A stretch of DNA of 64,000 nt from Alphaproteobacteria bacterium (GCA_963667785.2 CAXXMU010000005.1:1-64000); one strand, 5' to 3'. Positions 504 through 17,606 are shown, numbered from the stretch's first letter. The notes: generated from the sequence alone by a model not told the origin. Made by a program: numbers and translations.

Positions 504-802
504 CGTCGTGGGCGCAATGGGAAGAGGAGCGCTGCCGGCTCGACTGCCTGCGCCTGCTCGACGAGCTCCCCGCCTATTCGGCAAACCACCGCACGCTCGC
601 CGCCGCGTTGCAAACCCGCGGCCACAACCCCTCCGCCGACGCCCTGGCCGACACCCTCAACTGGCTCGCGGCGCGCGGCCTCCTGGAGACCCGCGAGGAG
701 GCCGGGTACGTCGTGGCGCGGCTGACCGATCGCGGCGCCGACGTCGCGGCCGGGCGCGAGACCGTGCCCGGCGTGGCGCGGCCGATGCCGGGCGATGGCT
801 GA
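500..802 (+). CDS. Mu gp26-like winged-helix protein
   Basis: 100 aa, LNWLAARGLL...ARLTDRGADVAAGR..VPGV pattern; precedes terminase small subunit. Confidence 0.75.
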   Translation: MTSWAQWEEERCRLDCLRLLDELPAYSANHRTLAAALQTRGHNPSADALADTLNWLAARGLLETREEAGYVVARLTDRGADVAAGRETVPGVARPMPGDG

Positions 803-1361
803 CCCCGGCCGGGTGACGCGCGGCCGCATGGGCCGCGTCGACCAGCTCCGCGAGACTCTGCGCGACGCGATCCACAAGTCGCTGCGTGCCGGCGTGCCGC
901 AGAAGACGATCCTCCAGGAAGTGAACGCGGCGCTGGCGGAGAGCGGCGGCCAGCCGATCAGCGCGGCGAGCCTCAACCGCTATGTCAACCGCCCGGCGAT
1001 CCGCGCCTTGGCCGAGCGCGCGCGGATCGCATGCGAGATCGGCGACGCGATCGCCCGCTCGGCCGAGGAGGGCGGCGGCACCAACCTCGACCGGGGGCTC
1101 GTGCAGGCGGGGCAGACCCTTGCCATGGAGGCGCTGGCCGAGATCGACTGGGACGGGTTCGAGCCCGAGGACCGCGTGAAGATGGTCGCCAATTTCGGGC
1201 TGGCCGTTCGACGCTTCGCGGCGAGCGCCGCCGTCACCGATGCCCGCGAGCGTGCGATCCGCGCGGAGGTCGCCGAGAGGGTGACGGAGGAAGCGAAGCG
1301 CCAGGGGCTGTCGCCCGACACCGCTGCGGCCATCCGCGCGGCGATCGAGGGCGCGTCATGA
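795..1361 (+). CDS. Terminase small subunit (Mu gp27/DUF3486-like)
   Basis: GRMGRVDQL, ISAASLNRY, GLSPDTAAAIR motifs; position. Confidence 0.75.
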   Translation: MADPGRVTRGRMGRVDQLRETLRDAIHKSLRAGVPQKTILQEVNAALAESGGQPISAASLNRYVNRPAIRALAERARIACEIGDAIARSAEEGGGTNLDRGLVQAGQTLAMEALAEIDWDGFEPEDRVKMVANFGLAVRRFAASAAVTDARERAIRAEVAERVTEEAKRQGLSPDTAAAIRAAIEGAS

Positions 1362-2767: not shown

Positions 2768-4380
2768 TCGCCGAATCCTACGAGCTGCTCGCCCGGGGCG
2801 TGCAGGCGCTGGCGGCCGCCCTGGCGCCCCGGCGCGATCTCGGCCGGCGCACCGCGGCGCCCTCCGTCGTGGGGCTGCGGCGCGCCCAGCAGTGGCGCTC
2901 GGTCGTCACCACGCTCACGCCGGAGCGCCTGCGCTCGATCTATCTGCAGGTCGCCCAGGGCGCCTGGTGCCCGGACTTCTTCGAGCTCGCGGAAGAGATC
3001 GAGGAGCGGGACGCGCACTACCGCGGCGTGCTGCAGCAGCGCCGCCTCCGCGCCGCCTCCGCGCCCGTGGACGTGCTGCCGGCGTCGGATGACGACGCCG
3101 ACGTGGAGCTCGCCGACGAGGTGCGCGAGCGGGTGATGCAGGGGCCGGGCTGGCACGACATGCTGCTCGACCTGCTGGACGGCATCGGCAAGGGCGTCTC
3201 CTGCCAGGAGATCGTCTGGGCCCGGCAGGGCGATCGCTGGGTCCCGGCGGCCTACCACCGGATCGATCCGCGCTGGCTGGTGTTCTCGGCCGAGGACGGC
3301 GAGACGCCGCTCCTGCTCCGCGACGAGCCCGGCGCGGGCTCCGGCACCGGCGGCTGGGACGGCAACGCGGACCCGCTGGCGGCGGGCAAGTTCGTCTACC
3401 ACCGCCACCGCTCCAAGAGCGGGCTGCCCGTCCGGGGCGGCCTCGCCTACGTCGCGGCCACCATGTGGCTGCTGAAGTCGACGGCGATCCGCGACTGGTG
3501 GGCCTATGGCGAGGTGTTCGGCATTCCCGTGCGCGTCGGCAAGTACGGCCCCAACGCCACCGACGAGGACATCCAGACCCTGGTCGAGGCGATCGCGGCG
3601 CTGGCGTCGGACGCCGGCGCCACCATCCCCGACACGATGCAGATCGAGTTCATCCAGGCGGCGCGGAGCGGCGGATCGTCGGACTCGCTCTTCCCGGCCC
3701 AGGCGCGCTGGTGCGACGAGCAGGTGTCGAAGGCCGTGGTGGGCCAGACCATGACCGCCGACGACGGCTCGAGCCTGAGCCAGGCGCAGGTGCACGCCGA
3801 CGTCCGGGACGACCTGGTCGGGGACGACGTGCGCCAGATGTGCGAGACGATCACCGCCGCCGTCATCGCGCCGTACTGCGAGCTGAACTTCGCCCCGCGC
3901 CCGGCCGGCTGGCCGCGCCTGGCGCTCCCGCCTCGCGAAGAGGCGCTCGAGATGGCCGCCGTGGCGGAGGGCGCCCGCGTCGGCCTGCTGATCCCCCAGA
4001 CCTGGGTGCGGGGCCGCATGGGCATCCCCGAGCCCAAGGAAGGCGAGCCGGTCCTCACCGGCCTCCCGGCCGGCCAGGCGGCGGCGGAGCCGCCCGAAGA
4101 GGGCGACGAGCCTGAGGACGATGACGGCGGGGAGGAGGAGCCGCCCGCGCCCAACGTCGCGCTGAGCGCGGCCGAGGCGATCGACGCGGCGCTGGAGGCC
4201 GGCGGCGGCTGGGACGTGCTCGCGGACGACCTGATCGGGCCGGTGGCGGACGCGCTCGAGGCGGCGCAGGACGCCGATTCGTTCCTGGCGCTTCTCGCCG
4301 AAGCCGGCACCCCGGAGCGCCTCGGGCGCGACCTGGCCCACCGGCTCTTCCGGGCCAGGGTGGACGGCGAGACCGGCTGA
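2764..4380 (+). CDS. Portal protein (Mu gp29/DUF935)
   Basis: EEIEERDAHY, DGIGKGVSCQEIVW, FGIPVRVGKY, VSKAVVGQTMT. Confidence 0.92.
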   Translation: MIAESYELLARGVQALAAALAPRRDLGRRTAAPSVVGLRRAQQWRSVVTTLTPERLRSIYLQVAQGAWCPDFFELAEEIEERDAHYRGVLQQRRLRAASAPVDVLPASDDDADVELADEVRERVMQGPGWHDMLLDLLDGIGKGVSCQEIVWARQGDRWVPAAYHRIDPRWLVFSAEDGETPLLLRDEPGAGSGTGGWDGNADPLAAGKFVYHRHRSKSGLPVRGGLAYVAATMWLLKSTAIRDWWAYGEVFGIPVRVGKYGPNATDEDIQTLVEAIAALASDAGATIPDTMQIEFIQAARSGGSSDSLFPAQARWCDEQVSKAVVGQTMTADDGSSLSQAQVHADVRDDLVGDDVRQMCETITAAVIAPYCELNFAPRPAGWPRLALPPREEALEMAAVAEGARVGLLIPQTWVRGRMGIPEPKEGEPVLTGLPAGQAAAEPPEEGDEPEDDDGGEEEPPAPNVALSAAEAIDAALEAGGGWDVLADDLIGPVADALEAAQDADSFLALLAEAGTPERLGRDLAHRLFRARVDGETG

Positions 4381-4381
4381 G

Positions 4382-5509
4382 ATGGCCCGCCCCTTCGGGG
4401 TTCTGCCGAAGGCGGCGCTCCGCTACCTGCGCGGCAAGGGCCTCAAGACCAGCCGCCACTGGACCGACGTCTTTCGCGAGGAGCATGCCGTGGGGTTCAC
4501 GGCGGCGCGGATGACGCGCCTCTCCCTCATCCAAGAGACGCACCGGGAGCTGGTGAAGGCGCTCGAGGCGGGCGAGACCATGGAGACTTTCCGCTCCCGC
4601 CTGCGGCCCTTCCTGGAGCGGCGCGGCTGGGCGCGCGACATCGCCGAGGCGCCGCGCGGCGGCGACATCCCGACGCGGCTGAAGCGGATCTACCAGGCCA
4701 ACATGCGCACCTCGCGGGCGGCCGGCCAGTGGGACCGCATCCAGCGCACCAAGCAGCTGATGCCCTTCCTGGTCTACGAGCTCGGCCCGAGCCGGGACCA
4801 CCGTCCGGAGCACGAGGCCTGGGCCGGAACCTGCCTGCCGGTCGACCATCCCTTCTGGCGGCGCGCCATGCCGCCCAACGGCTGGGGCTGCAAGTGCCGG
4901 GTCCGCCAGATCACGCGGGCCGAGCGCGACCGCCTGGTGAAGGAGGGCAAGGTCACGACCGAGGCGCCCAGGCTGCGCACGCGCGAGTGGACCAACCCCG
5001 TGACCGGCGAGGTCCACCAGGTGCCGGTCGGGATGGACCCCGGCTGGGACACCAACCCCGGCTACGAGCGGGCGAAGGGCGTCTCCGAGGCCGGGCTCGA
5101 CCGCCTCGATTCGGTGCTGGACGACATGGGCGCGGACCAGGGCGGCCGCTGGGGACGGCGCTATACCCGGGAGCTGATGTCGGGCGGCTCGTTCAAGCGC
5201 TTCGTCCGCTACCCCCGCAAGGGCGAGGTCATGCCGATCGGCGTGCTCCCGGCGCGCCCGGAGGGCGTGCGGAGCCGGCTGCTGACGCTGCAGGGCTTCG
5301 CCGCCCGCAAGCCGCATGGCGGCAAGAGGCTCAGGGCGGCCGCCTGGCTCCTGGCGCAGCGGATCATGGACGCGGCCGGCGCGCCCGCCGCCGCCGGCAA
5401 GCCCGGCCGCTGGCGCTGGGACGCGACGGTCGACGGAAAGCGCTACCGGCTGGTGACGCAGGAGCGGGACGGGCGGCTCACCGTGGTGACGATGCACGAG
5501 AGGACGTAG
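4382..5509 (+). CDS. Head morphogenesis protein MuF (gp30)
   Basis: RLKRIYQANMRTSRAAGQW, HRPEHEAW, PPNGWGCKCRV, DPGWDTNPG. Confidence 0.9.
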   Translation: MARPFGVLPKAALRYLRGKGLKTSRHWTDVFREEHAVGFTAARMTRLSLIQETHRELVKALEAGETMETFRSRLRPFLERRGWARDIAEAPRGGDIPTRLKRIYQANMRTSRAAGQWDRIQRTKQLMPFLVYELGPSRDHRPEHEAWAGTCLPVDHPFWRRAMPPNGWGCKCRVRQITRAERDRLVKEGKVTTEAPRLRTREWTNPVTGEVHQVPVGMDPGWDTNPGYERAKGVSEAGLDRLDSVLDDMGADQGGRWGRRYTRELMSGGSFKRFVRYPRKGEVMPIGVLPARPEGVRSRLLTLQGFAARKPHGGKRLRAAAWLLAQRIMDAAGAPAAAGKPGRWRWDATVDGKRYRLVTQERDGRLTVVTMHERT

Positions 5510-5766
5510 CGCCGGGCCGGGGCACCCCGACCCCGCGAGGCCTTGTCCCGACTGGCATGCCAACGGTTCGCGCGCCGAAGCGCGCAGTGCGGTCCAGGTC
5601 CGCTCAAGAGGCTCGGTTTCCTGGCATCGGAGCCCGGCGCTACGGGGCCAGCATGGTGGGCCGGCGCCCTCCGGTCAACATCTCGGTTTTGGAACAAAAC
5701 GTCTCCCGATCCCGGTGTAGGCTCTGCGCCCATGAACTCGCGCACCCCGCAACCTCGGTAGGCGTC

Positions 5767-6747
5767 ATGGACCCGGAAGCTCAAGTCGCCCTCTCTCCCC
5801 TCGTGCTCGCGTTGAACCTGGCGGCGATGGCCGGCGACGACGCGGCACCCCTCACCACCGAGGTGATTCCACCTCCCAACGGAGACGGCATCATCCAGGG
5901 CCGCGACGGCCGGCGCTACCGGATCGCGGACACGGCCGCGCTCGCGGCGCGGATCAACGCCCAGCAGGTGGTGCCGCGCCTCGACTTCGACCACCGGAGC
6001 GAGCGCAGCTCGCCCACCTTCTCCGGCAGCACGGCGGCCGACGGGTGGCTGAAGAACGCGCGCCCCAACGCGCGGGGCGGCATCGATGCGGACCTCGACC
6101 TGAACGCCTGGGCGGCGATGAACCTGCGGTCCGGGTCCTACCGCTACCTGTCGCCGGCGCTCCTGCACCGCACCGACATGGAGGTCACCGGCCTCTCGTC
6201 GGTCGCTTTCGTGAACGACCCCAACTTCAACCTGCCGGCGCCCACCATCCACAGCGCCGGCCCGGGCGCAGAGGGCGCCCCGGACGCGGGCGAGCGCGAG
6301 AAGGCGCTCGAGGCGCGCGAGAAGGCGGCAGACGAGCGGGCGCTGAACGCGGCGACGCGGGCCGTCGAGGCGGCGGCGGCCGACGGGAAGATCCCGGCGG
6401 CCGCCAAGGACGCCCACATCGAGACGATCAAGTCGCACAGGGACGGCATCGATGCCGGGCTGAACGCCTTCGAGAAGCTGATCGCGGCCTCGGCCGAGGC
6501 GGCGCCCGGCGGCGGGGGCGCAGGCGGCCTCGACGCCGACGCGCTCAAGACGCTGGGCACGCGGGTCGGGCCGGCCGGCGCGCCGAACGCCGGCGCCGGC
6601 GCGAACGCGACCTTCCCGGCCCCGGCGGGAACGCAGCCGCCCGAGGCGGAGCGGCTCTCGCTCCACCAGAAGATCGCCGACTACGCGCGCCAGAACGGTG
6701 TGAGCTACCGCGACGCGGTGCTCCACTTCGGCGCGATGGGGCACTGA
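5767..6747 (+). CDS. Mu gpI-like prohead protease/scaffold
   Basis: GRDGR, LDFDH, AADGWL, YRYLSP, AFVNDPN; true start probably ATG 5767 inside ORF 4729-6747. Confidence 0.85.
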   Translation: MDPEAQVALSPLVLALNLAAMAGDDAAPLTTEVIPPPNGDGIIQGRDGRRYRIADTAALAARINAQQVVPRLDFDHRSERSSPTFSGSTAADGWLKNARPNARGGIDADLDLNAWAAMNLRSGSYRYLSPALLHRTDMEVTGLSSVAFVNDPNFNLPAPTIHSAGPGAEGAPDAGEREKALEAREKAADERALNAATRAVEAAAADGKIPAAAKDAHIETIKSHRDGIDAGLNAFEKLIAASAEAAPGGGGAGGLDADALKTLGTRVGPAGAPNAGAGANATFPAPAGTQPPEAERLSLHQKIADYARQNGVSYRDAVLHFGAMGH

Positions 6748-6750
6748 GCC

Positions 6751-7128
6751 ATGTCCGGGATCGTCGCCGACACGGTAACGTCGCAGCCGCTCCTCACCGT
6801 CACGGCCGAGGCCTCCGGCGCCACCGACAAGTTCCGCCGCTTCGTCCTCGCGGACGGCACCCGCTCGGTCGAGGGCAAGCGGCCGCTCGGCGTCTGCCGC
6901 GTCAAGTCGTCAACCGACGGCGACCTGATCCCCGTGGACGTGGCCGGCATCGTCCTGGTCGAGGCCGGCGCCGCGATCGCGCTCGCCGACGGCGAGAAGA
7001 AAGTGCAGTCCGACGCCCAGGGGCGGGCGGTCGCCGCCGCCGGCGCCAACCCCGTCGCCGGCGTCGTCCTCGCCGCCGCCGCCGCGGCCGGCGACATCGT
7101 TCCCATCCTGCTGGCGGGAGGCCCCTGA
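6751..7128 (+). CDS. Capsid cement/decoration protein (DUF2190-like)
   Basis: 125 aa, LGV..GD.IPVDVAGIVLVEAGAAI...SDAQGRAV...AAAAGDIV. Confidence 0.75.
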   Translation: MSGIVADTVTSQPLLTVTAEASGATDKFRRFVLADGTRSVEGKRPLGVCRVKSSTDGDLIPVDVAGIVLVEAGAAIALADGEKKVQSDAQGRAVAAAGANPVAGVVLAAAAAAGDIVPILLAGGP

Positions 7129-7130
7129 TC

Positions 7131-8105
7131 GTGGACCCTGACGTGCACATCGCCCTGAACGCAGCCGACGGGCAGCAGCTCTCGAACCCGGCCGCGCGGG
7201 TCATCGACCCGATCCTGACCACGGCCGCGCGGGGCTACGTGAACGCCCAGCTCGTCTACCGCGCCCTCTTCCCCCAGGTCACCACGAGCGCCCGCGGCGG
7301 CGTGCGGATCGAGTTCGACCGCACCGACTTCCGCAAGGTCAACACCCGCCGCGCGCCGGGCGCCACCACCCAGGACATCCAGTTCGGCCATGAGGGCAAG
7401 AAGTTCGCCCTCACCCAGCACCGGCTGATGGGCAAGGTGCCGGTGGAGACGGCCGAGGAGGCCATGACGGTCGCCGGGATCGACATGGGCATGCGCACGG
7501 TGACCGGCGTGCAGAACATCATCGGGCTCGAGCGCGAGATCCAGGCGGCCGAGCTCGCCACCGCGTCCGCCACCTACGACGCGACCCACGTGGTCACCCT
7601 CGCCGGCAACAGCCAGTGGAGCGACGGGAACTCGACGCCCACCGCCAACGTCATGACCGCCATCGAGGCGATCCGCTCGGCGACGGGCATGCGGCCGAAC
7701 ACGGTCGTCATGGGCGGCGCCGTCTACTCGAAGATCCGCACGCACAAGGAAGTGCTGCAGCAGATCCGCTACGACGGCGGCAAGCAGATCGCGACCAGGG
7801 ACGACCTGGCGCGGCTCTGGGACATCGAGCGCGTCTTCGTCGGCGACGCGATCTACGTCGACGACGACGACAGCCCCAGCGACGTCTGGGGCAAGGACGT
7901 GGTGATCGCCTACTCCGCGGTCGGCTCGATCTCCCGCTACGAGCCCTCCTACGGCTACGGCTACAACCTCTCCGGCACGCCGATGGTCGAGCAGGCCTAC
8001 TACGACCGGGACAAGAACTCCTGGCTCTACCCGGTGACGGAGGAGTGGACCAACGAGGTGGTCGGCAAGGACGCCGGCTACCTGATCAAGGCGGCCATCG
8101 CCTGA
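7131..8105 (+). CDS. Major capsid protein
   Basis: ARVIDPILTTAARGY, RAPGA, GMRPNTVVMG, VWGKDVVIAY, PSYGY, AGYLIK; GTG start 7131. Confidence 0.85.
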   Translation: MDPDVHIALNAADGQQLSNPAARVIDPILTTAARGYVNAQLVYRALFPQVTTSARGGVRIEFDRTDFRKVNTRRAPGATTQDIQFGHEGKKFALTQHRLMGKVPVETAEEAMTVAGIDMGMRTVTGVQNIIGLEREIQAAELATASATYDATHVVTLAGNSQWSDGNSTPTANVMTAIEAIRSATGMRPNTVVMGGAVYSKIRTHKEVLQQIRYDGGKQIATRDDLARLWDIERVFVGDAIYVDDDDSPSDVWGKDVVIAYSAVGSISRYEPSYGYGYNLSGTPMVEQAYYDRDKNSWLYPVTEEWTNEVVGKDAGYLIKAAIA

Positions 8106-8458
8106 TGACGGACAAAGCCCCCGAGAGCCGCCTCCTCACAGCGATCACCAACGTCCACCTCGACGGGGCGGCGCACGCTCCCGGCGCGGTCTTCGATGCC
8201 CCGGAGGAGATCGCGGCGCAGCTGATCTCCCTCGGCGCCGCCCGCCACGCCGAGGAGGGCGACGGCGTCGACCTCGAGCGCGTGAACGGGATCGGCCCGA
8301 AGACGGCCGACGCCCTGCGCGAGGCGGGCGTGCCCGACCTCGAGCGCCTGGCCGACGTCCCCGACGAGGCGCTGCCCGCCCTCGGCGGGATCGTGAAGAA
8401 GGACGCCGACGCCGTCCGCGCCTGGCGCGCCGAGGCGCGGGAGCTGCTGTCGCAATGA
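8105..8458 (+). CDS. Small head-associated protein with helix-hairpin-helix motif
   Basis: HLDG..HAPGAVF N-terminus plus LERVNGIGPKTADAL HhH. Confidence 0.65.
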   Translation: MTDKAPESRLLTAITNVHLDGAAHAPGAVFDAPEEIAAQLISLGAARHAEEGDGVDLERVNGIGPKTADALREAGVPDLERLADVPDEALPALGGIVKKDADAVRAWRAEARELLSQ

Positions 8459-8754
8459 CGCGCTGGCGCGTCGCTCCCGCCGGCCCCGCCGCCGTCGATA
8501 CCTGCGGCCTGCACATCCCGCCCGGCGGGATCGAGCGGGAGCTGGACGCGGACACCCTCCGGCTGCTCTCCGGAGACGCCCGCGTGACGGTGGAGGAGGC
8601 CGCCCCGGAGGCCCGGGAGGAGGCGCAGGCCGCCCAGGAGGCCCAGGAGGAGGCGCAGGCCGCCCAGGAGGCCCAGGAGGAGGCGCAGGCCGCCCAGGAG
8701 GCCCAGGAGGCCGCCAGGGCCGCTCCCGCGAAGACGCGAGCCAAGCCCCGCTGA
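8455..8754 (+). CDS. Mu gp35/HI1506-like protein with EAQ tandem repeats
   Basis: CGLHIP...LRLLSGDARVTVEE then (EEAQAAQEAQ)x3; position after capsid. Confidence 0.55.
   Translation: MTRWRVAPAGPAAVDTCGLHIPPGGIERELDADTLRLLSGDARVTVEEAAPEAREEAQAAQEAQEEAQAAQEAQEEAQAAQEAQEAARAAPAKTRAKPR
8611..8710 (+). repeat. 30-bp coding tandem repeat, about 3.3 copies
   Basis: gcccaggaggaggcgcaggccgcccaggag at 8611 (1 mismatch), 8641, 8671, partial 8701. Confidence 0.95.
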
Positions 8755-8765
8755 CCGGTGCCGCC

Positions 8766-9215
8766 GTGGGCACCGTCTACCTCACACCGGAGCGGCTCGC
8801 GGCCATCATCGGCGAGAGGAGCCTGGTCGTCGCCGCGCCGAATCCCGACGACGCGAAGGGGTACGACGCCGCCACGGTCTCGACCGCGATCGGCGCCGTC
8901 TCCGACATGGTCGACGCGCGGCTCCGGACCCGCTACGGCATCCCCCTCGACGACGTGCCGGAGTTCCTCAGCCGCGCCGTGGCGCGCCTCGTGCATCTGG
9001 AGCTCGTCGACGCCACCGCGTGGACGGAGCTGATCGAGAACCGCGCCGTGGAGGCGCGGAAGATCGTGGACGGACTCGCGAGCGGCAAGCTGCAGATCGG
9101 CGCCGATCTCGACGGGGACGGCACCCCGAACGAGCGCACCACCCACGGCCGCGCGGTGGTGAGCGCGCCGGCGGAGCGCATCTTCCGCCGCCGCGACACC
9201 CGCGGGATCGTCTGA
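8766..9215 (+). CDS. Head-tail adaptor (Mu gp36/DUF1320-like)
   Basis: YLTPERL, VDARLRTRYGIPL..VPEFL, ASGKLQIG. Confidence 0.8.
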   Translation: MGTVYLTPERLAAIIGERSLVVAAPNPDDAKGYDAATVSTAIGAVSDMVDARLRTRYGIPLDDVPEFLSRAVARLVHLELVDATAWTELIENRAVEARKIVDGLASGKLQIGADLDGDGTPNERTTHGRAVVSAPAERIFRRRDTRGIV

Positions 9216-9721
9216 TGGCGCGGGGCGCCTCCGTCACGATCGACGCCGGCGAGGTCACGGCGCTCGCGCGCCGCCTGCGGGCGGCCGCTGCGGCGCCCAC
9301 GGCCCCGCTGATGGAGGCGCTCGCGGCCGCCGGCGAGAGCGCCACCAGGGCGCGGCTCGCCGCAGGCGGCCCCGCGCCGGACGGCAGCGACTGGCCTGCG
9401 CGCAACCCGGCCTACGTCAACCCCGCTCCGATGCTCAACCGCGAGGGCGGCCTGGTCGATTCCCTCGCGAGCGAGGCGGCGGCGGATTCGGCCGCGTGGG
9501 GCTCCAACCTGATCTACGCCCGCATCCACCAGCTCGGCGGGACCATCGTGCCGAAGCAGGCCGACGCGCTGCGGTTCATGCTGGGCGAGGAGATGGTCAC
9601 GGCGAAGTCGGTCACGATCCCGGCGCGGCCCTATCTCGGCTGGGGCGCGGACGAGGTGCGCATGGCCGAGGACGTCCTGGAGGCGTGGCTCGACCAGGCC
9701 CTGGGGAGCGGCGGCGGATGA
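9215..9721 (+). CDS. Virion morphogenesis/tail completion protein (Mu gpG/P2 gpS-like)
   Basis: PDGSDW, GSNLIYARIHQLGG, VTIPARPYLG. Confidence 0.88.
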   Translation: MARGASVTIDAGEVTALARRLRAAAAAPTAPLMEALAAAGESATRARLAAGGPAPDGSDWPARNPAYVNPAPMLNREGGLVDSLASEAAADSAAWGSNLIYARIHQLGGTIVPKQADALRFMLGEEMVTAKSVTIPARPYLGWGADEVRMAEDVLEAWLDQALGSGGG

Positions 9722-10278
9722 GCGTGGGCGACGTCCTGGAGCGGCAGATCGCCGCCCGGCTGCGCGATGCCACGGCCGCGCCCCTGGACACGCTGCATAC
9801 GGTCGAGGTCTGGGACGGCGCCTGGGACGTGCTGGCCTCGCCCCGGCGCATGTCCTTCCGCGCGCCGGCGGCGCTGGTCTCGGCCACCGCCTTCGAGCTG
9901 GTCGACCGGGGCCGGCCGGCGTTCCCTCCGCGCCAGCTGCAGCGCGGCGACGAGCCGCCGCCCCCGTGCCTCCAAGTCCGCGTCGACGTGGCGCTCACCT
10001 TCGTCTCGGACGATCCCTCCGCGTCGCAGCGGGCGCGCGACGTCCTCGAGCTGGCCGCCGCCGCCCTTCCGCTGCTGATCGACGCCGCGGTGGAGGACCC
10101 CATCCGGGGCACCAACCTCTACGCGAAGACGCTCTACGAGGCCGGCATGAGCGCCTTCGCCCTGCTGGGCCGGCGGACGGTCGAGCTCGCGGCCGCCCCT
10201 CCGGCGCCCCGGCTCCCGGAGAGCGTGCGGGGCCAGGGCGGGTGCCTCCCCGGGGAGGTGGTGTGGACCGATGGATGA
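9718..10278 (+). CDS. Putative tail terminator (Mu gp37-like)
   Basis: TVEVWDGAWD...RAPAALVS; position; coupled to both neighbours. Confidence 0.55.
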   Translation: MSVGDVLERQIAARLRDATAAPLDTLHTVEVWDGAWDVLASPRRMSFRAPAALVSATAFELVDRGRPAFPPRQLQRGDEPPPPCLQVRVDVALTFVSDDPSASQRARDVLELAAAALPLLIDAAVEDPIRGTNLYAKTLYEAGMSAFALLGRRTVELAAAPPAPRLPESVRGQGGCLPGEVVWTDG

Positions 10279-10669
10279 GGGCTCCTACCAGGAGGTGCTG
10301 CTGCGTTTATCGGCCCTTGAACGGCGGGTGAACGCCCTCTTCAGGGTCGGCGTCGCGGCCGAGGTGACGCTCGATCCCTACCGCGTCCGCCTCGACATCG
10401 GCCCCGGCGAGGACGGCGAGGAGGTCCTCACCGATCCGCTGCCGGTCCTGGTGCCGGCGGCGGGCGGCATCCGCATCTGGTCGCCCGTCGCGGTCGGCGA
10501 GCGCTGCGCCATGCTCTCGCCCGGCGGCGAGGACTTCTCGGCCTTCGTCCTGCCGGCGCTCTACAGCGACGCGTTCGGGGCTCCCGACGCGACGGCTCGC
10601 GCCATGACGATCGTGTCGCCGACGACGATCACGTTCAAAGGCGCCAGCGACACGTTTGTGGTGCGGTGA
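10271..10669 (+). CDS. Baseplate spike protein (P2 gpV-like, short)
   Basis: LERRVNALFRVGV, IWSPVAVGERCAMLSPGG, FVLPALYSD; only 132 aa. Confidence 0.85.
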   Translation: MDEGSYQEVLLRLSALERRVNALFRVGVAAEVTLDPYRVRLDIGPGEDGEEVLTDPLPVLVPAAGGIRIWSPVAVGERCAMLSPGGEDFSAFVLPALYSDAFGAPDATARAMTIVSPTTITFKGASDTFVVR

Positions 10670-10941
10670 TGGCGCGGATCGCCCTCGCCACCCTCGACAC
10701 GGCCGGCGGCCTCATCGGCAACTCGCAGGGGGTGGCGTCCACCATCAACGGCAGGCCGATCGCGGTCGAAGGCGATATCGTGGCCCCCCATCCGCCCTGC
10801 CCCGAGAGCCCGGCCCACTGCGCCGCGACGATGGCCGCGAGCGCCGCCAGCACCATCAACGGCAGGCGGATCACGCTGGCGGGCGATCCGGCCACGTGCG
10901 GCCACGGCGCCACGGGCGCCGCCGCATCGACGATCGTGTGA
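10669..10941 (+). CDS. PAAR spike-tip protein
   Basis: INGRPIAVEGD, HPPCP..H, INGRRITLAGDPATCGH. Confidence 0.88.
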   Translation: MARIALATLDTAGGLIGNSQGVASTINGRPIAVEGDIVAPHPPCPESPAHCAATMAASAASTINGRRITLAGDPATCGHGATGAAASTIV

Positions 10942-10950
10942 GGGCTGACC

Positions 10951-12018
10951 GTGACACGGGTCATGAGCCGCGACGGCTCCCGCATCCTGGACGGCGCGGA
11001 GAGCGCCCGGCAGCGCCTGGGCGACGCGCTCCGCATCCGCCGCGGCACCTATCCCTGGCTGCGCGACTACGGCTCCCGCCTCGACGACCTGATCGACCTG
11101 AACATGGACGGCGACTTCGAGACCCGGGTCTACGCCGCCGTCGCCGACACGGTCGCCCACGCGCCCAACGGGCTCGGCGACATCGCCCTGCGGGAGGTGC
11201 GCCTGCACCGGGACCCGGACGGCGGCGATCTCGCCGAGGTGGAGGTGTTCGCCGACTGGATCGCGCCGGACGGCAGCGGGGGCGAATTCGGGCTGCGCCA
11301 GGCGCTCGGGGCGCCCCGCCCTCCGGCCAGCACGCTCTACACCGCGACCCCCGTCGGCCTCCACACGATCGATCCCGCGACCGGCGCCGCCGCGCGGGTG
11401 GGGAGCGCGCTCGACTACGGCCTGGGCGCCCCCGTCATGCCCACCGCGCTCGCCTGGGACGGGCGCATCCTGTGGATGACCGTCCGGCTCCCCGGCAGGC
11501 TCTACGCGGTCGACCGGGCCACCGGGGTGGCGGAGAGGATTCCCGGGCCGGACAACTTCGGGATCGGCGAGAGCCGGCCCGAGGCGATGGCGTGGGCCTC
11601 CTGGCGCCTGCTGATGCTGGGCGACGACACGGACGCCCTCTGGGCGCTCGACCGGAGCTCGGCCGAGGCCGCGCGCGTCCACGCCATCGACCGCTTCGGC
11701 GTCGGCGAGCACCAGCCGGACGGCGCCGCCTGGGACGGCTGGCGCCTGTGGATGGTGGGCGGCATCAACGACGCCCTGCACCGGCTCGACGTCGATACCG
11801 GGCAGGCGATCAGGGCCGGCGAGGCCTACCGCTTCGGCCAGGACCTGGACGGCGGCGGCGAGCTGGCCTGGGCCCCGCACCGCCTGCTGATGATGCGCGG
11901 CGGCGCCATGCTCTACGAGCTCGACCGCGTGAGCGGGGAGGCCGCGCCGCTCGTCGCGATCGCGGGGCTCGACGGGACGGCCGGCGGCCTGGTGTGGGCG
12001 CCGGAGGCGGACGAATGA
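10951..12018 (+). CDS. Baseplate wedge gpW/GP25-like domain fused to beta-propeller-like repeats
   Basis: RQRLGDAL...GTYPWLRDYGSRL..LID N-terminus; five LxxxDxxxGxAxxx-type repeats follow. Confidence 0.7.
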   Translation: MTRVMSRDGSRILDGAESARQRLGDALRIRRGTYPWLRDYGSRLDDLIDLNMDGDFETRVYAAVADTVAHAPNGLGDIALREVRLHRDPDGGDLAEVEVFADWIAPDGSGGEFGLRQALGAPRPPASTLYTATPVGLHTIDPATGAAARVGSALDYGLGAPVMPTALAWDGRILWMTVRLPGRLYAVDRATGVAERIPGPDNFGIGESRPEAMAWASWRLLMLGDDTDALWALDRSSAEAARVHAIDRFGVGEHQPDGAAWDGWRLWMVGGINDALHRLDVDTGQAIRAGEAYRFGQDLDGGGELAWAPHRLLMMRGGAMLYELDRVSGEAAPLVAIAGLDGTAGGLVWAPEADE

Positions 12019-13241
12019 CCGCCGGCGTCGACCTGAGCCGGCTCTCCCGGCCGGAAGTGCCGGGGCTGCTGAAGAGCCTCGACGCGGTGCACGGGGAGAT
12101 GCTCGCCTGGCTCGCCGCCAATTACGACTGGACGCTCACCGCCGACGGCTCCGATCCGGCCTGGAGGGTGAGCCGCCTCCTCGCCTCGCGCGAGGCCATG
12201 ATCCGCCAGGGCATCGCGGATTCGCTCGCGCAGGCGTCGCTCGCCTATGCCGCCGGCGAGAACCTGGACCATATCGGGGCGAGCTACTACGGCCTCGAGC
12301 GCCTGGAGGGCGAGGGCGACGACGCCTACCGCCTGCGCCTGGCGGCGGCGACCGAGCGCTACGCGGTCGGCCTTTCCGGCCCGTGGTACGAATCCGTGGC
12401 GCGCGGGGTGGTCGGCGCCGCCGACGCCAGGGTGACCTCGCCCGCTCCGGGCGACATCACGATCTACATCCTGGCCAACGAGGCCCTGCTGGACGCCGAC
12501 GGCGACCCGGTCTACGCAGACGGCATCCCGACGCAGGCCCTGCTCACGGCGGTGACGGCCGCCGTCACCGCCAAGGAGGCCCGCCAGCAGACCGACGTGG
12601 TGACGGTCTCGGCCTGCACGCGCGTCGCCTACAGCATCGCCGTGACGCTCACCATTCGGACCGAGCCTGACTCGGCGGCGGTGCTCGCTGCCGCCCGCGA
12701 GGGGCTGGCCGGCCTCACCCGCGACGTCGACAGGCTCGGCGGGGCGCTCACGCCGGAGCTGATCGCCGGCGCCGCAATCGATCCGGCGCAAGTGACGGCC
12801 GCCGAAATCATCATCCGCCATGAGGCGCCCGTCGCCGCCACGCTGAGCGTCGGCGCGGGCAACGCGGCGCTGGCATTCACCGCAGATGCGGCGGGCGCCG
12901 GCGGCAACGCCATCACTGTGGCGCTGGTCGACCCCGGCGGAAACGATCAGGCTCTCGCCGTGGCCGTGGCCGAACAGGCGATCACCGTCTCGCTGGCGAC
13001 CGGCAACGCAGGCGCCATCACCAGCACCGGCGCGGAGGTCCTGGCGGCCGTGAACGCGCACGCCGGCGCCTCGGCACTGGTCACGGCTGCGAACGCCGCA
13101 GGCTCGGACGGCACCGGCGTGGTCGCGGCGAAGGCCGCCACGCCTCTCGCGGGCGGCGCACCGAACAGCGTGGTGAGCGGGATCCCCGCCGTGGACAGCG
13201 TCGCGCCCAAGGCGCGCATGCTCACGGTGGCGGCGGCATGA
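12015..13241 (+). CDS. Baseplate J-like protein with inserted sheath-like domain
   Basis: VDLSRL, SDPA, LAYAAGENLDHIG, ERLEGEGDDAYRLR, VTSPAPGDI; ATG 12015. Confidence 0.85.
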   Translation: MTAGVDLSRLSRPEVPGLLKSLDAVHGEMLAWLAANYDWTLTADGSDPAWRVSRLLASREAMIRQGIADSLAQASLAYAAGENLDHIGASYYGLERLEGEGDDAYRLRLAAATERYAVGLSGPWYESVARGVVGAADARVTSPAPGDITIYILANEALLDADGDPVYADGIPTQALLTAVTAAVTAKEARQQTDVVTVSACTRVAYSIAVTLTIRTEPDSAAVLAAAREGLAGLTRDVDRLGGALTPELIAGAAIDPAQVTAAEIIIRHEAPVAATLSVGAGNAALAFTADAAGAGGNAITVALVDPGGNDQALAVAVAEQAITVSLATGNAGAITSTGAEVLAAVNAHAGASALVTAANAAGSDGTGVVAAKAATPLAGGAPNSVVSGIPAVDSVAPKARMLTVAAA

Positions 13242-13840
13242 CCGGGATCGCGCCCAGGACGGCGAGCGCGGTCGAGCGCGGCCTGGACGAGACTGCTGCG
13301 GCGCGCACGGCCGCGCTGCCCGCCCACCTCCCCGTCACGGCCTGGGACGCGGAGCGGATACCGGGTGCCTGGCTGGCGGTGCTGGCATGGGCGCTCTCCG
13401 TCGACCTGTGGGACGCGACCTGGGAGGACGACCGCAAGCGCCGCGCCATCGCGGCCGCCATCGACCAGCACCGGCTCAAGGGCACGCCGGCGGGGCTCGA
13501 GCTGGCGCTCGACCTGGTCGGCGCCGACTACGAGATCACCGAGCGGCCCGGCGGCGCCCGCTTCGTCGTCGCCGTCCACGTCTACAACCTCGGCAGCATC
13601 GCCCTCGACGGCCAGACCCGGCTGATCGCGGCCATCAACCGGGTGAAGCGCGCCAGCGTGCACATCCAGCTCTCGACCGATGACGGCGGCGTCCTCGACA
13701 TCCTCGTCGCCGGCGGGATCGGCGCGGCGCTGCCCGCGCCGGAGCCCGCGACGCTCACGGTCGATGCCGCCTACGACAACGTGCTGACGTGGGGCGGCCA
13801 GCCCCTCACGTGGGGCGGCGAGGAGCTGACATGGGGTTAG
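13238..13840 (+). CDS. Tail protein I (P2 gpI-like)
   Basis: WLAVLAWALSVDLWDATW...KR..I..AI..HRLKGT; INRVKRASVH. Confidence 0.9.
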   Translation: MTGIAPRTASAVERGLDETAAARTAALPAHLPVTAWDAERIPGAWLAVLAWALSVDLWDATWEDDRKRRAIAAAIDQHRLKGTPAGLELALDLVGADYEITERPGGARFVVAVHVYNLGSIALDGQTRLIAAINRVKRASVHIQLSTDDGGVLDILVAGGIGAALPAPEPATLTVDAAYDNVLTWGGQPLTWGGEELTWG

Positions 13841-13860
13841 GCGAGGGGAGGCGCTGAGCG

Positions 13861-15471
13861 ATGGTGGCAGTGCCGCAGCAACCGACCGCGGGGGCGCCGG
13901 ACGATACGGACCTGCTCAGCTTCTATCCGGCAGATGGCAGCGCCCCAAAGACGCGCGAGCTCAAGGGCGGCCTGCTGCCCTGGCTCAAGAGGACGCTCGC
14001 GGGCCGCGACGAGGATTTCTACGGCTCGTTCCAGAACGCCAGCGCGTTCCTCGCCGCCGGCACGTTGGAGCGCCGCGGGGAGTGGTCGATCGCGAACGTT
14101 GCGGCGGGCGCGCCCGATGTGGACGACGACATCCTCCTCTCCCAGATCGTGGACGGCAACTACACGGTCTGCTTCTCGACCCGGATGCGCAGCGATCCGG
14201 ACAACAACGTCTGGGCGCTGGCAGCGAGGACGACGGCGGCGGACTTCCCGGTCGGCCGCAAGATCGTCGGTCGCGTCCCCGGCGTCGCCTCCCGCTACGC
14301 GACGATGACGCTGACGGCGGCCGGCACGGTCGTCGGCGCCGGCGATGCCGAGTACGTCTACGCGGCGGCGACGATCGACGAGGTCGGCGACCTCTTCGAT
14401 CACGACGACTGGAACGTGTTCAGCGAGGTCGTGCCGCCGGACATCGGCATCGATTCGGCGCTGATCCGCAGCCTCGGCTCGCTCTGGGACCGGATGCTCG
14501 TCACGCTGGAGGGCACGGCTTCAATCCTCAAGCGCGCCCGGCAGATCATCCAGGGCAACAACGAGACGCAGACCCTGAGCGTCACGCGGGTGGCGGGCAA
14601 TCCCGCCGCCGCCGGGGAGATCTACCTCGGCAATCTCGCCAACGGCATCGGCCAGCTGCTGTTCTGGCCGCCTTCGGCCACGAAGGACGGCACGGCCTTC
14701 GAGCTCGAGGACCTGCGGGAATACCAGAGCGGCGATTTCCTCTCCTACGGCGGCCTCGAATGGGAGATCGGCGCCCAGCCGTGGGTCACGTTCCAGGGCA
14801 GCATCCTGACCGCCACCGTGATGCTCGCCGACGGCTACGTCTACGACGCGGCCGACGTGCCGGCGCTGAACGCGGCGGCGGATTTCGTGCTGGAGGGCCG
14901 CGACATCCACCTCGGCCTGGTGGTCGCGGCGATCCTCAAGCGCGCCGCCAACAACCTCGGCGGGAAGGGCGGCGCTGCCGGCAAGATATGGGCTTATCTC
15001 TCCAGCGACACGGACGCCACCTGGCGGCGCCTGCTGGACGTGCTGAAGGCCGACGCTGACACGGCCGCGAAGAGGGGCGACTACCACGCGGCGCTCGGCC
15101 CCTCGGCCAAGGTCCTGGTGAACGGGGCGTCGACCCAGATCTCCAAGAACTGGACGCAGGTCGACCTCGGGGCGGCGGAGGACTACGGCGATTATTCGAT
15201 CCTCGCCGTCACCCTGAAGGAGCAGGCGGACCGGAAGGACACGACCACGGCGTGGTTCTCGACCTCGCGGATCGCCGCGCTGGACGCGGCCTCCGTCGCC
15301 GGCCAGACGTGGTACGACAACGCCCGTGACCCCTATATCGAGCCAGCCACGAGCGACATCGCCGGGGGGAAGATCATCCTCGGGAAGGGCGCCGCCGGCC
15401 GCTACGTCATGCTGGCGCACGACAAGAACGCGGCGGAAAACTACGACCTGACGATCGAGGGAATCAGATGA
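13861..15471 (+). CDS. Hypothetical beta-rich virion protein (possible second fibre)
   Basis: 536 aa, GGAGG RBS, sits between gpI-like and fibre genes. Confidence 0.55.
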   Translation: MVAVPQQPTAGAPDDTDLLSFYPADGSAPKTRELKGGLLPWLKRTLAGRDEDFYGSFQNASAFLAAGTLERRGEWSIANVAAGAPDVDDDILLSQIVDGNYTVCFSTRMRSDPDNNVWALAARTTAADFPVGRKIVGRVPGVASRYATMTLTAAGTVVGAGDAEYVYAAATIDEVGDLFDHDDWNVFSEVVPPDIGIDSALIRSLGSLWDRMLVTLEGTASILKRARQIIQGNNETQTLSVTRVAGNPAAAGEIYLGNLANGIGQLLFWPPSATKDGTAFELEDLREYQSGDFLSYGGLEWEIGAQPWVTFQGSILTATVMLADGYVYDAADVPALNAAADFVLEGRDIHLGLVVAAILKRAANNLGGKGGAAGKIWAYLSSDTDATWRRLLDVLKADADTAAKRGDYHAALGPSAKVLVNGASTQISKNWTQVDLGAAEDYGDYSILAVTLKEQADRKDTTTAWFSTSRIAALDAASVAGQTWYDNARDPYIEPATSDIAGGKIILGKGAAGRYVMLAHDKNAAENYDLTIEGIR

Positions 15472-15487
15472 CGAAGGATCGCGAGCC

Positions 15488-17218
15488 ATGACGGCGCGCC
15501 TCCGCCTCACGGACGGCGGCCGCAACGCCATGGCCGACGCCGCGAACGTCGGCATCCAGGCGGTGCAGATCAGGAAGCTGGCGCTCGGCGACGGCAGCGG
15601 GCCGGGCGGCGTCGCCGACGACGCCCGCACCACGCTCCGCAGCCAGCGGGACGTCGCTGCGGTCACCGGCACCGCCGATGCGGGCCGGATCGCCGTCCGG
15701 GCGACGATCGCCGGCCCGAACGCCTACGCCATCACCGAGATGGGGCTGTTCGCGCGGATCGGCGCCGACGGCGACGAGTTCCTCTTAGCCTACTGGACCG
15801 ACGACGGCACGGTGTTCCTCAACAAGCCGGCCGACCTGAATCTGATCGTCGCGGCCTCCATAGCGATCGTCCGCAGCTCCGCCGCCGTCACCGTCACGGT
15901 CGATCCCGCGATGACCGTCGTCGCCGGAGCCGAGGGGGGCATCACGGGCCCCGTCGACGCCAAGGCGGCCGCCTACACCGTCGTCGTCGGCGACGACGGC
16001 AAGACCATCGCGGTCGACGCCAGCGGCGCGGCCCGCACGGTCACCCTCCCCGACCTCGGCGCCGCCGACGACGGCTTCACCATCACGGTGCTGAAGAGCG
16101 ACAACACCGACAACGCCGTGACGATCGACGGCGACGGGAACGACCAGATCAACGGGGCCGCCACCTACAAGCTGGAGAGCCAGTTCGCCGCCGCGATCCT
16201 GAAGTGGACCGGCGCCGAGTGGCTGGCGGTCGGCGGCGCCGCTCCGGACTGGGTCGCCGCCTACGTGGCGGAGAACGCCTCCGGCGGCCTCCTGGGCGCC
16301 GTCGACGCCAAGGCGGTCAACTACGCTGTCGTCGCCGGCGACGACGGCAAGACCATCGAGGTGGACGCCAGCGGGGGGGCCCGCACTGTCACCCTCCCCG
16401 ACCTCGGCGCCGGCGACGACGGCTTCACCGTCACGGTGCTGAAGAGCGACAATTCGGCCAACGCCGTGACGATCGACGGGAACGGCAACGACACCCTGAA
16501 CGGGGCCGCCACCTACAGCCTCAAGGAGCAGTACGAGGCCGTCATCCTCAAATGGACCGGATCGGAGTGGCTGGCCATCGGCGGCGCGACGGGAGCGCTC
16601 CTGCGGGATTTTTTCGGGGGCGCTAGCAGTCGGGAGTTCACGACCGCTGGCGCCCACAACTACACGTGGGAGTGGAACACGTCGAAGGGGCTGGCGATCA
16701 TTGAAGGCGGCGGCGGCGGCGGCGGTGGCGGCGGTGGCGGCGGAACGGGGAGCCACGGCGGGGTGGACGGAACTGACGGCAGCGCGGGCGGCTCGAGCTC
16801 GGTGACTCATGCCGGGACGACCTCCACCGCTCAGGGAGGCGACCCCGGCGGAGGCGGAGACGGCGGGCGGTACTTCGGCGATCCACGTTCCAGCGTTGGC
16901 CCCAGCGCCGACGGTGATGGCGGCGATGCCGAGCGGTCGGGTGGTGACGGTGGCGCCGCGGGTGCGTCCAACAGTGCCGGTGCGCCGAATGGCGAACCGC
17001 AAACTCCGGCTTATGCGGGAGGCGATGGAGGAGATGGCCATATCGTCATTCGGTGGCTGGACAACGTGCAGAAAGGGACCGTGATTGCGCTCACGGTCGG
17101 TGCCGGCGGCGACGCGGGCGACGGCGGCGCCGCCGCGCCGGGAGGTCAGGATCAGACCGCCGGCTCCGACGGCACACCGGGCACGACAGGCCGGGTGCGG
17201 CTGATACCCCTGTTCTAG
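15488..17218 (+). CDS. Tail fibre: gpH-type N-terminus, two 116-aa repeats, glycine-rich C-terminus
   Basis: LTDGGR, LALGDG, YAITEMGLF; duplicated VDAK..Y.V..GDDGKTI.VDAS unit; FTTAGAHNYTW...GGGGGGG. Confidence 0.85.
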   Translation: MTARLRLTDGGRNAMADAANVGIQAVQIRKLALGDGSGPGGVADDARTTLRSQRDVAAVTGTADAGRIAVRATIAGPNAYAITEMGLFARIGADGDEFLLAYWTDDGTVFLNKPADLNLIVAASIAIVRSSAAVTVTVDPAMTVVAGAEGGITGPVDAKAAAYTVVVGDDGKTIAVDASGAARTVTLPDLGAADDGFTITVLKSDNTDNAVTIDGDGNDQINGAATYKLESQFAAAILKWTGAEWLAVGGAAPDWVAAYVAENASGGLLGAVDAKAVNYAVVAGDDGKTIEVDASGGARTVTLPDLGAGDDGFTVTVLKSDNSANAVTIDGNGNDTLNGAATYSLKEQYEAVILKWTGSEWLAIGGATGALLRDFFGGASSREFTTAGAHNYTWEWNTSKGLAIIEGGGGGGGGGGGGGTGSHGGVDGTDGSAGGSSSVTHAGTTSTAQGGDPGGGGDGGRYFGDPRSSVGPSADGDGGDAERSGGDGGAAGASNSAGAPNGEPQTPAYAGGDGGDGHIVIRWLDNVQKGTVIALTVGAGGDAGDGGAAAPGGQDQTAGSDGTPGTTGRVRLIPLF

Positions 17219-17254
17219 GGTGACCGCACGCCCCATTTCCCGGCCGTTTCAGCC

Positions 17255-17329
17255 CCGATTCCGGACCGATTTTCCAGCCGATTCCCAGCGACATTTGCGC
17301 CGATTCCGCCCGACTTTTGCGCGCCTACA
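17255..17329. repeat. Putative transposon right end: three ~22-bp transposase-binding repeats and terminal ACA
   Basis: ccgattccggaccgattttccag 17255, ccgattcccagcgacatttgcg 17278, ccgattccgcccgacttttgcg 17300, then cgcctaca. Confidence 0.72.
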
Positions 17330-17404
17330 GCCTACGCGCGGGAAGCGACGGCCGGCACCATCGCCACCAGCGGCTATAGATCGCCGTATGCTTGTGAATG
17401 GGGC

Positions 17405-17560
17405 TGGCGCTCCGGGGGTCGGAAACCCGCCTTAGGTCAGGTCGACGCGTTTTAGGCTCTCGCCCTGGACATGAGCGTCGCCCCCGGAGCATGGGAGATC
17501 CCGCCGGACTTTCGGGGGCGGGGCCCGCCTGAGGTGGAGCTTCCGAACTCCAAGGCGGAA
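17405..17560 (+). ncRNA. Candidate C4/ash-type antisense RNA region
   Basis: gctccgggg/ccccggagc stem; tcggaaacccgccttagg complementary to downstream cctgaggtggagcttccga; TATGCT just upstream. Confidence 0.33.
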
Positions 17561-17606
17561 GGGTGGCGGGGAAAGGGCGGGGCGTTAAGAGGGATGCGGA
17601 TACCTA

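Follow-up and report, generated by a model that had tools for sequence, protein, structure and literature searches.

In phage Mu, a single rightward late arm places the sheath gene L, the tube gene M, the tape measure and the hub between the neck and the spike. The tail genes of phage P2 follow another order, in which an S-type completion gene is succeeded by V-W-J-I and the fibres, and the trunk genes read FI-FII-E-T-U-(X)-D. P2 does not transpose, its head is of another kind, and its two tail blocks are adjacent and co-directional. Here we analyse a prophage of an Alphaproteobacteria bacterium whose right end lies in a stretch of 64,000 nucleotides, called the window below (GCA_963667785.2 CAXXMU010000005.1:1-64000; bases 1-64000 of contig C5, G000:C5:1-64000). 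The feature under study occupies positions 7131-17329 of the window, and a transposon end lies at 17329. The window very probably holds the right arm of one ~39-kb Mu-type transposable prophage that has a complete contractile tail and was split by the assembly over two contigs.

Two described phages share parts of this layout. Ochrobactrum phage POA1180 (Abaiavirus, KX669658), called a myovirus in its paper (PMC5492332), resembles the present element in its MuA/MuB-type transposase genes (seen here in a sister copy) and its Mu-like head, annotated as terminase, portal, head-morphogenesis, protease and capsid. In both, genes for a virion-morphogenesis protein of the Tail_S type and for a hypothetical protein lead directly into gpV-W-J-I and the fibres. 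The annotated trunk of POA1180 is also P2-type (sheath, tube, chaperone, tape measure, U, X, D), but it follows the fibres on the same strand, in P2 order, whereas in the present element it stands behind GemA, at the opposite end and on the opposite strand. The MuA of POA1180 is 35% identical to the one found here, and tblastn gave no match in that phage to the 186-aa protein whose gene precedes gpV in the window. For the Burkholderia transposable phage KS10, its description (PMC2628397) reports a capsid module split by ~11 kb and a first ~17 kb inverted relative to Mu, a split layout that the authors called unique at that time. Like the present element, KS10 is a transposable myophage with late genes in two arms separated by the early region, but its split runs inside the head module: F, portal and terminase lie with the early genes, and the tail genes form one block in Mu order. 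In the present element only the trunk of the tail stands on the early arm, and the genes for head, neck, baseplate and fibres are kept in one group. A head-module split of the KS10 type occurs in a co-resident element on contig C1, not in the window's element. A search of open-access full text brought up no report of a transposable phage in which the trunk module follows the early operon.

What the element shares with Mu are TG...CA ends with a 5-bp duplication, GemA, and the head and neck families gp27, Portal_Mu, F, I protease, gp36 and G/Tail_S; a sister copy further has a DDE_2 transposase (35% identity to that of Mu), a MuB-like ATPase and a Gam-like protein. The element departs from Mu in its divergent arms, in the P2 type of its trunk proteins and in the order of its genes. 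An S-type completion protein followed by V-W-J-I and fibres, together with the FI-FII-E-T-U-(X)-D families, is its P2-like part. The head and transposition genes are Mu-like and the tail is P2-like in content and in its V-W-J-I order, with the FI-FII-E-T-U-X-D block moved from after the fibres to a divergent arm after the early operon. This gene order is unusual but not unprecedented: POA1180 has the P2-type passage from neck to gpV, and KS10 has split late modules.

The tail trunk and the ends of the element

The original prediction, made from the window alone, had read 7131-17329 as a Mu-like phage with head, neck, baseplate wedge, spike and fibres but no sheath, tube, tape measure or hub. 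We searched the 4.09-Mb assembly for phage families, for the motif described below and for element ends. Raw lists of open reading frames (ORFs) were noisy because the G+C content of the window is ~72%; frames were chosen by third-position G+C and the proteins annotated with Pfam and PHROGs. The late genes of the window form a gap-free plus-strand series from the gp27-like gene to the fibres, and between 7131 and 17329 their content and order are those that had been predicted (Table 1). PF11985, PF06074, PF04233, PF10123 and PF07030 all score above the Pfam cut-offs, so that a Mu-like head module is present, and V-(PAAR)-W-J-I followed by fibres, at 10271-17218, is the arrangement of P2-type contractile tails. 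The predicted overlap between the gpV gene and the gene before it is also real and amounts to 8 bases (ATGGATGA).

The reported lack of a trunk holds for the window and for contig C5, the whole of which gave no Phage_sheath_1, Phage_tube, Phage_GPD or PhageMin_Tail match in family searches, but it does not hold for the phage. Because the window begins at contig base 1, the prophage is cut by the contig start, and the absence is a property of C5, not of the prophage. Genome-wide, the family search found sheath and tube at two sites, both on contig C6: at C6:1199357-1200698 on the minus strand, ~5 kb from the contig end, and as an identical copy at C6:518230-519571 on the plus strand, inside a sister element. 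Around the first site, seven trunk proteins are encoded at C6:1194398-1201709, inside the element ends and all uninterrupted (Pfam and PHROGs). From the left end at 1194143, and with all genes on the minus strand, this left arm comprises gpD, gpX, gpU, the tape measure, chaperone E, tube and sheath and then, beyond the sheath, an 86-aa ORF, GemA and DUF1643, after which other early genes fill the rest of C6. The trunk module thus lies at the opposite end from the baseplate and fibre block, on the opposite strand and downstream of early genes (GemA); the canonical P2 adjacency, in which the trunk stands co-directionally beside baseplate and fibres, is absent from this element. The original prediction had listed a module to the left of the window among its explanations, and this proved correct: sheath, tube and tape-measure genes occupy the left arm of the prophage (C6:1194143-1205778), on the end of another contig, inverted and behind early genes.

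The two pieces are joined by their ends. The genome has three copies of the end sequence TGTAGGCGCGCAAAAG... that agree as far as window base 17329 and diverge beyond it, which bears out the prediction that 17329 is a true transposon end. A fuzzy search with this right end located a diverged inverted copy at C6:1194143. There the left end of the element reads TGTAGGGACG..., preceded by GCCTA (C6:1194138-1194142), and the right end, ...GCGCCTACA at C5:17329, is followed by GCCTA (C5:17330-17334). The terminal inverted repeats are imperfect (TGTAGGCGCGCAAAAGTCG... read inward from C5:17329, TGTAGGGACGCATAAGTCG... from C6:1194143), and the outer ends of both pieces read TGTAGG...CA with the same 5-bp duplication. 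TG...CA ends with 5-bp target duplications are the signature of Mu. By our own arithmetic, a match at five of five flanking bases has a chance of ~1 in 1,000. Orientation, content and homology to the sister all agree with the end of C6 and the start of C5 being one insertion, so composed of C6:1194143-1205778 (11,636 bp), an unassembled centre of ~9.9 kb (estimated by comparison with the sister) and C5:1-17329.

Repeats are a plausible cause of the break between the contigs: the sister copy contains an exact repeat of the final 127 bases of C6, and the proteins encoded in the first 800 bases of C5 share ~98% identity with their counterparts in the C1 element. A comparison of contig ends gave no bridging contig, as the final 31-127 bases of C6 turned up again in the sister alone and the first 31-127 bases of C5 nowhere else.

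The fully assembled sister on C6 shows how the arms are arranged. Its fibre-to-terminase arm has the gene order of the window, with no sheath between neck and gpV, and BLAST aligned window 1439-10585 with C6:501256-492097 at 94.6% identity and window 10943-12804 at 98.4%. Its second arm, which lies beyond a regulatory region at the centre and runs on the opposite strand, contains MuA, the MuB-like gene, a GcrA-like gene, a Gam-like gene, DUF1643 and GemA, and then sheath, tube, chaperone, the 966-aa tape measure, gpU, gpX and gpD. The sister's MuA matches DDE_2 (1.7e-45), HTH_Tnp_Mu_2 (Mu I-gamma) and Mu-transpos_C, and its MuB-like AAA protein matches AAA_22. An alignment of 11,512 bp at 99.2% identity links this arm (C6:513153-524659) with the end of C6 (C6:1205778-1194268). 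In the sister, the stretch that corresponds to the unassembled centre holds MuB, MuA, regulators, a Dam methylase and lysis genes. By the gene calls in the sister, the late genes therefore stand in two divergent arms around the early region, as in a KS10-type layout.

Between the window copy and the sister, nucleotide identity is 99.9% in the portal gene and 99.5% in the capsid gene (dN/dS 0.08), and Tail_S shows a dS of 0.145 with a dN/dS of 0.04. At the protein level, identity falls to 57% in TerL, 43% in gp27, 32% in the first fibre and 82% in the gpV region. Such mosaicism indicates recent exchange among co-resident prophages rather than decay, although it does not prove activity.

A candidate late promoter

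Comparison of the sister's regions 5' of the sheath gene and of the first lysis-arm gene brought out a motif with identical spacing in both, TTTTGGAAYAAA, 14 bases and CGGKGTAGSC (36 bp in all). It has five matches in the 4.09 Mb, all within the two sister elements and all directed at late genes (Table 1), and the exact 12-mer half-site is likewise confined to those five places. The window contains one match, compared with 0 in 100 shuffles. The motif is also conserved in IMG/VR relatives: L013 has it in front of the protease gene and L057 in front of the sheath gene. Its 3' part holds TAGSCT, which retains the T, the A and the final T of a -10 hexamer, whereas the 5' part is too distant to serve as a -35 box and, by analogy with the C-dependent late promoters of Mu, resembles an activator site. 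An ATG follows TAGSCT by 6-8 bases in the sheath copies of this genome, in the L057 sheath and in the L013 protease, a spacing that suggests leaderless or nearly leaderless transcripts.

The late operons of Mu (Plys, PI, PP and Pmom) depend on the activator C. By position and conservation, we infer that the 36-bp motif is a candidate shared late promoter and that the trunk operon probably shares its late regulon with the operons for lysis, head and baseplate, and so can sit on the other arm. The move of the trunk would be tolerated because the late genes form separate activator-dependent operons, as in Mu; since the sheath operon, the lysis arm and the arm from protease to fibres each have a copy of the motif in front, they would be activated jointly, and a normal myovirus particle would be assembled.

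Some local features of these leaders were recorded in passing. Between the motif and the protease start, the window (5723-5766) has ~35 extra bases including a 9-codon mini-ORF (ATG 5732), unlike L013, where the protease ATG comes directly after the motif; the protease start in the window (ATG 5767) was assigned from the sequence and by comparison of N-termini with L013. A run of ~13 G at C6:516903-516916 immediately precedes the 86-aa ORF upstream of the sheath motif, and a run of 9 C (C6:504168-504176) lies in the lysis-arm leader; these could be slippage-prone tracts or assembly errors. The 86-aa ORF (C6:516915-517175) and a Cys-rich region upstream of it are candidate activators.

Relatives and rival explanations

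Tblastn with the proteins of this element was applied to 36 capsid-related loci from the species representatives of the Genome Taxonomy Database (GTDB). One of them (L016), a distant relative in the metagenome-assembled genome (MAG) G152, repeats the window's order through the fibres on one contig, MuF-capsid-gp36-TailS-p186-gpV-gpW-gpJ-gpI-fibre, without a sheath. The only sheath locus of G152 (L054) is on another contig and reads MuA-MuB-GemA-sheath-tube-chaperone-tape measure, all co-directional; its sheath is 51% identical to that of the window's element. In a second MAG (L029 and L050) the capsid is followed by gpJ, and in L050 then by sheath and chaperone, in P2 order. The sheath lies ~3.2 kb past the capsid gene in 19 loci from Photorhabdus, Xenorhabdus, Pectobacterium, Brenneria and other enterobacteria (L031-L049), a C1-type sheath lies ~2.2 kb past it in L021 and L025, and L026 has a sheath match ~3 kb downstream. 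The remaining 11 loci, several of them short, gave no tail match at E<=1e-5.

Among 30 IMG/VR loci with sheath relatives, only L057 (67-86% identity) shows MuA-MuB-GemA-sheath-tube, co-directional and with identities of 75% for MuA, 83% for MuB, 57% for GemA, 86% for the sheath and 82% for the tube; the other 29 reach at most 41% identity and stand in P2-like contexts. The capsid protein alone as query found one IMG/VR contig and none in the GTDB representatives. Alignments of sheath and tube had no match in Joint Genome Institute (JGI) metagenome contigs, nor did the tube alignment in IMG/VR, and in 400 genomes of the phylum the sheath protein had only matches of 33-36% identity, in 8 genomes. 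The closest cultured phages are ~40% identical in the capsid, ~35% in the sheath and ~35% in MuA.

These relatives bear on the other explanations offered by the original prediction. It had asked whether the adjacency of the gp37-like and gpV genes recurs, and it does: neck-p186-gpV is found in L016, and a comparable neck-hypothetical-gpV order in POA1180. The passage from the neck straight to gpV-W-J-I and the fibres is the native P2-type order and no deletion scar, and a clean deletion need not be assumed. The prediction had also considered a stub-tailed particle, or a transposable satellite with its own head, baseplate and fibres that borrows sheath, tube and tape measure from a helper. The lack of trunk genes in the window and on C5 had spoken for it, but it finds no support now because the element encodes its own complete trunk set within the same transposition unit. 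A satellite would lack structural genes and borrow them, whereas head, neck, baseplate, fibres and trunk are all enclosed by one pair of ends; moreover, the fully assembled sister has both arms on one contig, the sheath operon bears the same motif as the head operons, and both the Tail_S neck protein and a gpW wedge resembling a sheath initiator are present. Either form of this explanation is contradicted by these findings and very improbable. Still less credit can be given to the view that the trunk genes form a separate element, a tailocin or a P2-like remnant beside Mu-like prophages. The trunk block is indeed P2-like next to a Mu-like head, and its sheath is only ~35% identical to that of any cultured phage, but it lies inside TG...CA ends and 5-bp duplications in both copies, it is co-directional with GemA and directly downstream of it in four independent sequences (the two copies here, L054 and L057), and no baseplate or fibre genes accompany it.

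Several observations weigh against a single, intact prophage. The linkage of the contigs rests on the 5-bp duplication, the end sequences and the layout of the sister, with no spanning read or contig. Host-flank synteny was uninformative, as no shared locus was readable in 20 same-genus genomes: the left-flank protein (C6:1191920-1192954) had one weak match there, at 37% identity, and the right-flank protein (window 18562-19350) belongs to a multi-copy family with many paralogues, found in 14 of the 20. The promoter role of the motif is deduced from position and conservation only, and a sigma-70 consensus scan gave 0 promoter-like sites in 5400-17600. Values of dN/dS come near or above 1 in short or mosaic genes (2.2 in the helix-hairpin-helix protein, 1.0 in gpV, 1.0-1.2 in the fibres), and between the copies the measure is mostly uninformative because most genes are 99-100% identical or mosaic. 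The genome has one DDE_2 transposase gene, in the sister, and the centre of the window copy is not in the assembly; tblastn with MuA, MuB, lysozyme and repressor of the sister and of the C1 element found no further copy in the genome. Since the transposase, repressor and lysis genes of the window copy are unseen, this copy could be defective.

Such a remnant, with arms from one insertion and a deleted or scrambled centre, would have no replication or lysis of its own and could at most contribute parts to the sister or recombine with it. The missing central genes favour this possibility, as does the make-up of the copy as a mosaic of its neighbours: the left arm follows the sister, the first 800 bases encode C1-like proteins, and TerL is far from the sister's. 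Yet none of the ~27 genes seen on the two arms is interrupted, the element has kept its ends and its target duplication, and a break within near-identical prophage repeats, such as the last 127 bases of C6, is the expected way for an assembly to fail. We therefore consider a defective remnant unlikely and retain the reading of one transposable prophage with a complete contractile tail.

More tentatively, and with doubts that outweigh our confidence, the element may represent a lineage, so far undescribed, of transposable myophages with Mu-type transposition and head and a P2-type tail, in which the trunk operon stands behind the early/middle operon on the divergent arm. It would be driven by a compact late promoter shared with the head operons, be transcribed without a leader and, being co-directional with early transcription, could give an earlier or larger output of sheath and tube by read-through, and the arrangement would have been kept over ~50% protein divergence in at least three independent sources.

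Feature coordinates, side observations and significance

The features of the element, of its copies in this genome and of the motif are collected in Table 1.

Table 1. Genes, motif copies and element ends. Positions without a contig name refer to the window.
Feature	Position	Strand	Family match or remark
Small late protein, function unassigned	500..802	+	phrog_436 9e-25; 98% aa identity to C1:207861-208157
Mu gp27-like small terminase subunit	795..1361	+	PF11985 4e-22; phrog_426
Large terminase subunit	1370..2767	+	start uncertain (1031 or 1370); Terminase_6C 1e-7; phrog_5909, phrog_2
Mu-type portal	2764..4380	+	Portal_Mu 9e-91
Mu F-like minor head protein	4382..5509	+	PF04233 3e-13; phrog_220 2e-71
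Candidate late-promoter motif, 36 bp	5687..5722	+	TTTTGGAACAAA-N14-CGGTGTAGGC; 45 bp 5' of protease start
Same motif before protease gene, sister	C6:496960-496995		
Same motif before lysis arm	C6:504198-504233		
Same motif before sheath gene	C6:517176-517211; C6:1201717-1201752		
Mu I-like head protease/scaffold	5767..6747	+	Mu-like_Pro 1e-14; phrog_328
Head cement/decoration-like protein	6751..7128	+	Phage_cement_2 2e-8; phrog_673
Major capsid protein	7143..8105	+	phrog_1005 2e-83
117-aa helix-hairpin-helix protein	8105..8458	+	HHH_5 4e-8
99-aa protein	8455..8754	+	no Pfam/PHROG family; conserved in L013
Mu gp36-like head-tail adaptor	8766..9215	+	PF07030 (Phage_Mu_Gp36) 1e-15; phrog_195
Phage_tail_S (P2 gpS / Mu G family), tail completion or neck protein	9215..9721	+	PF05069 3e-22; phrog_26 1e-30
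186-aa neck-region protein (earlier label 'gp37-like')	9718..10278	+	no Pfam/PHROG family
Short gpV-like spike, OB domain	10271..10669	+	Phage_base_V 1.8e-4 (below cut-off); phrog_9992 2e-10
PAAR spike tip	10666..10941	+	PAAR_motif 2e-8
gpW-like wedge / sheath-initiator N-terminus	10951..12018	+	phrog_43 3e-13, residues 3-91
gpJ baseplate wedge	12015..13241	+	Baseplate_J 2e-14
gpI baseplate protein	13238..13840	+	Tail_P2_I 3e-23
Probable tail fibre	13861..15471	+	by position; no Pfam/PHROG family
Tail fibre, collar-type N-terminus	15488..17218	+	phrog_3737 2e-12; internal 305-bp repeat
Right transposon end, read inward TGTAGGCGCGCAAAAGTCGGGCGG	17306..17329	-	identical in three elements, divergence immediately outside
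Target-site duplication GCCTA, 5 bp	17330..17334		partner C6:1194138-1194142
gpD (hub)	C6 end module	-	Phage_GPD 1.3e-6 (below cut-off); phrog_52 3e-33
gpX	C6 end module	-	Phage_tail_X 2e-14
gpU	C6 end module	-	Phage_P2_GpU 4e-15
Tape measure, 966 aa	C6 end module	-	PhageMin_Tail 1e-13
Chaperone E	C6 end module	-	Phage_TAC_7 7e-15
Tube	C6 end module	-	185 aa; Phage_tube 4e-20
Sheath, 615 aa	C6 end module	-	phrog_23 3e-57; Sheath_1C below Pfam cut-off
Window's element	C6:1194143 ... C5:17329		GCCTA both sides
Sister element, 38,862 bp	C6:485923-524784		CTCAA both sides
Third element, 39,208 bp	C1:174072-213279		GCGAC both sides

The major capsid protein has 529 relatives at E<=1e-30. The 186-aa protein after Tail_S is far rarer, with 18 relatives besides the window's own protein, no match in 50,697 phage records and none in 150 related genomes. 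It matches no Pfam family even at E<=1 and none in PHROGs. Its AlphaFold model has a pLDDT of 60.6, the best Foldseek E-value was 0.087, with no significant structural match, and in a VIA search the best Z was 4.0, to unrelated proteins, while tail-terminator and collar chains reached only 2.1-3.3. The original label 'gp37-like' is therefore unsupported, and 'terminator' is equally unproven for a protein with no family, a low-confidence model and no significant structural match. One homologue (P0122, 64% identity) has an extra C-terminal PKD domain (K319L-like_PKD 1.4e-11), which hints that the 186-aa protein may be exposed on the particle surface.

Several tail proteins carry additions. The gpW-like protein has 351-355 aa compared with the usual ~120-150 (149 aa in the C1 element), and its C-terminal ~230 aa (window 11250-12018), without a Pfam match, form five or six Trp-rich repeats (..AWDGxxLWM..) that suggest a possible beta-propeller-like add-on. 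A domain of ~105-108 aa is common to the C-terminus of gpJ (window 12836-13159, residues ~274-382) and to an N-terminal insertion of the sheath (C6:517422-517745 and C6:1201183-1201506), with the pattern ..GAGNAxLxFxADAAGxxGNxITVALxDPG...ITVSLAT...ALVTA.. and identities of 82% in nucleotides and 53% in amino acids over 206 residues. It is present twice in tandem in the sheath and once in the MAG relative, and it is missing from the gpJ of the sister (297 aa vs 408 aa in the window); it probably serves as surface decoration and has passed from one tail protein to another. The distal fibre gene contains a 305-bp direct repeat (15935-16239 and 16283-16587, 84% identity), one unit of which is also 83% identical to fibre sequences in the C6 and C1 elements.

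The genome has at least four Mu-type portal genes, on C5, C6, C1 and C8; the regions noted in this connection are C1:174072-213279, C8:115067-115969 and C1:1-8030. The first of these, the C1 element, has a KS10-like layout: one arm carries early genes, lysis, terminase, portal and F, and the other combines protease and capsid with a sheath of Mu type (490 aa), a tube, a tape measure, a hub, the baseplate and the fibres. Over its last 1,048 bp this element matches the fibre end of the window at 98.9% identity. Outside the prophages, a dispersed ~230-bp repeat with a REP- or MITE-like look (80-97% identity, both orientations) is found at window 24703-25004, just outside the sister's end at C6:524863-525105 and at more than 50 other sites. 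A host gene at window 20987-22222 (459 aa, minus strand) is a recent duplicate, 94% identical in DNA to C6:1124068-1125303.

The apparent trunk-less phage thus resolves into a contig boundary combined with an unusual gene order, which removes a false lead; when a prophage fragment seems to lack a module, this should be tested against the true ends of the element. The arrangement adds a second kind of split late-gene layout to that of KS10. One copy of a shared motif before each late operon would be a concrete explanation for the rearrangements tolerated in Mu-like phages, and the motif TTTTGGAAYAAA-N14-CGGKGTAGSC is directly testable. With three to four related transposable prophages undergoing mosaic exchange in one 4.1-Mb genome, this bacterium offers a natural system for the study of recombination among Mu-like phages.

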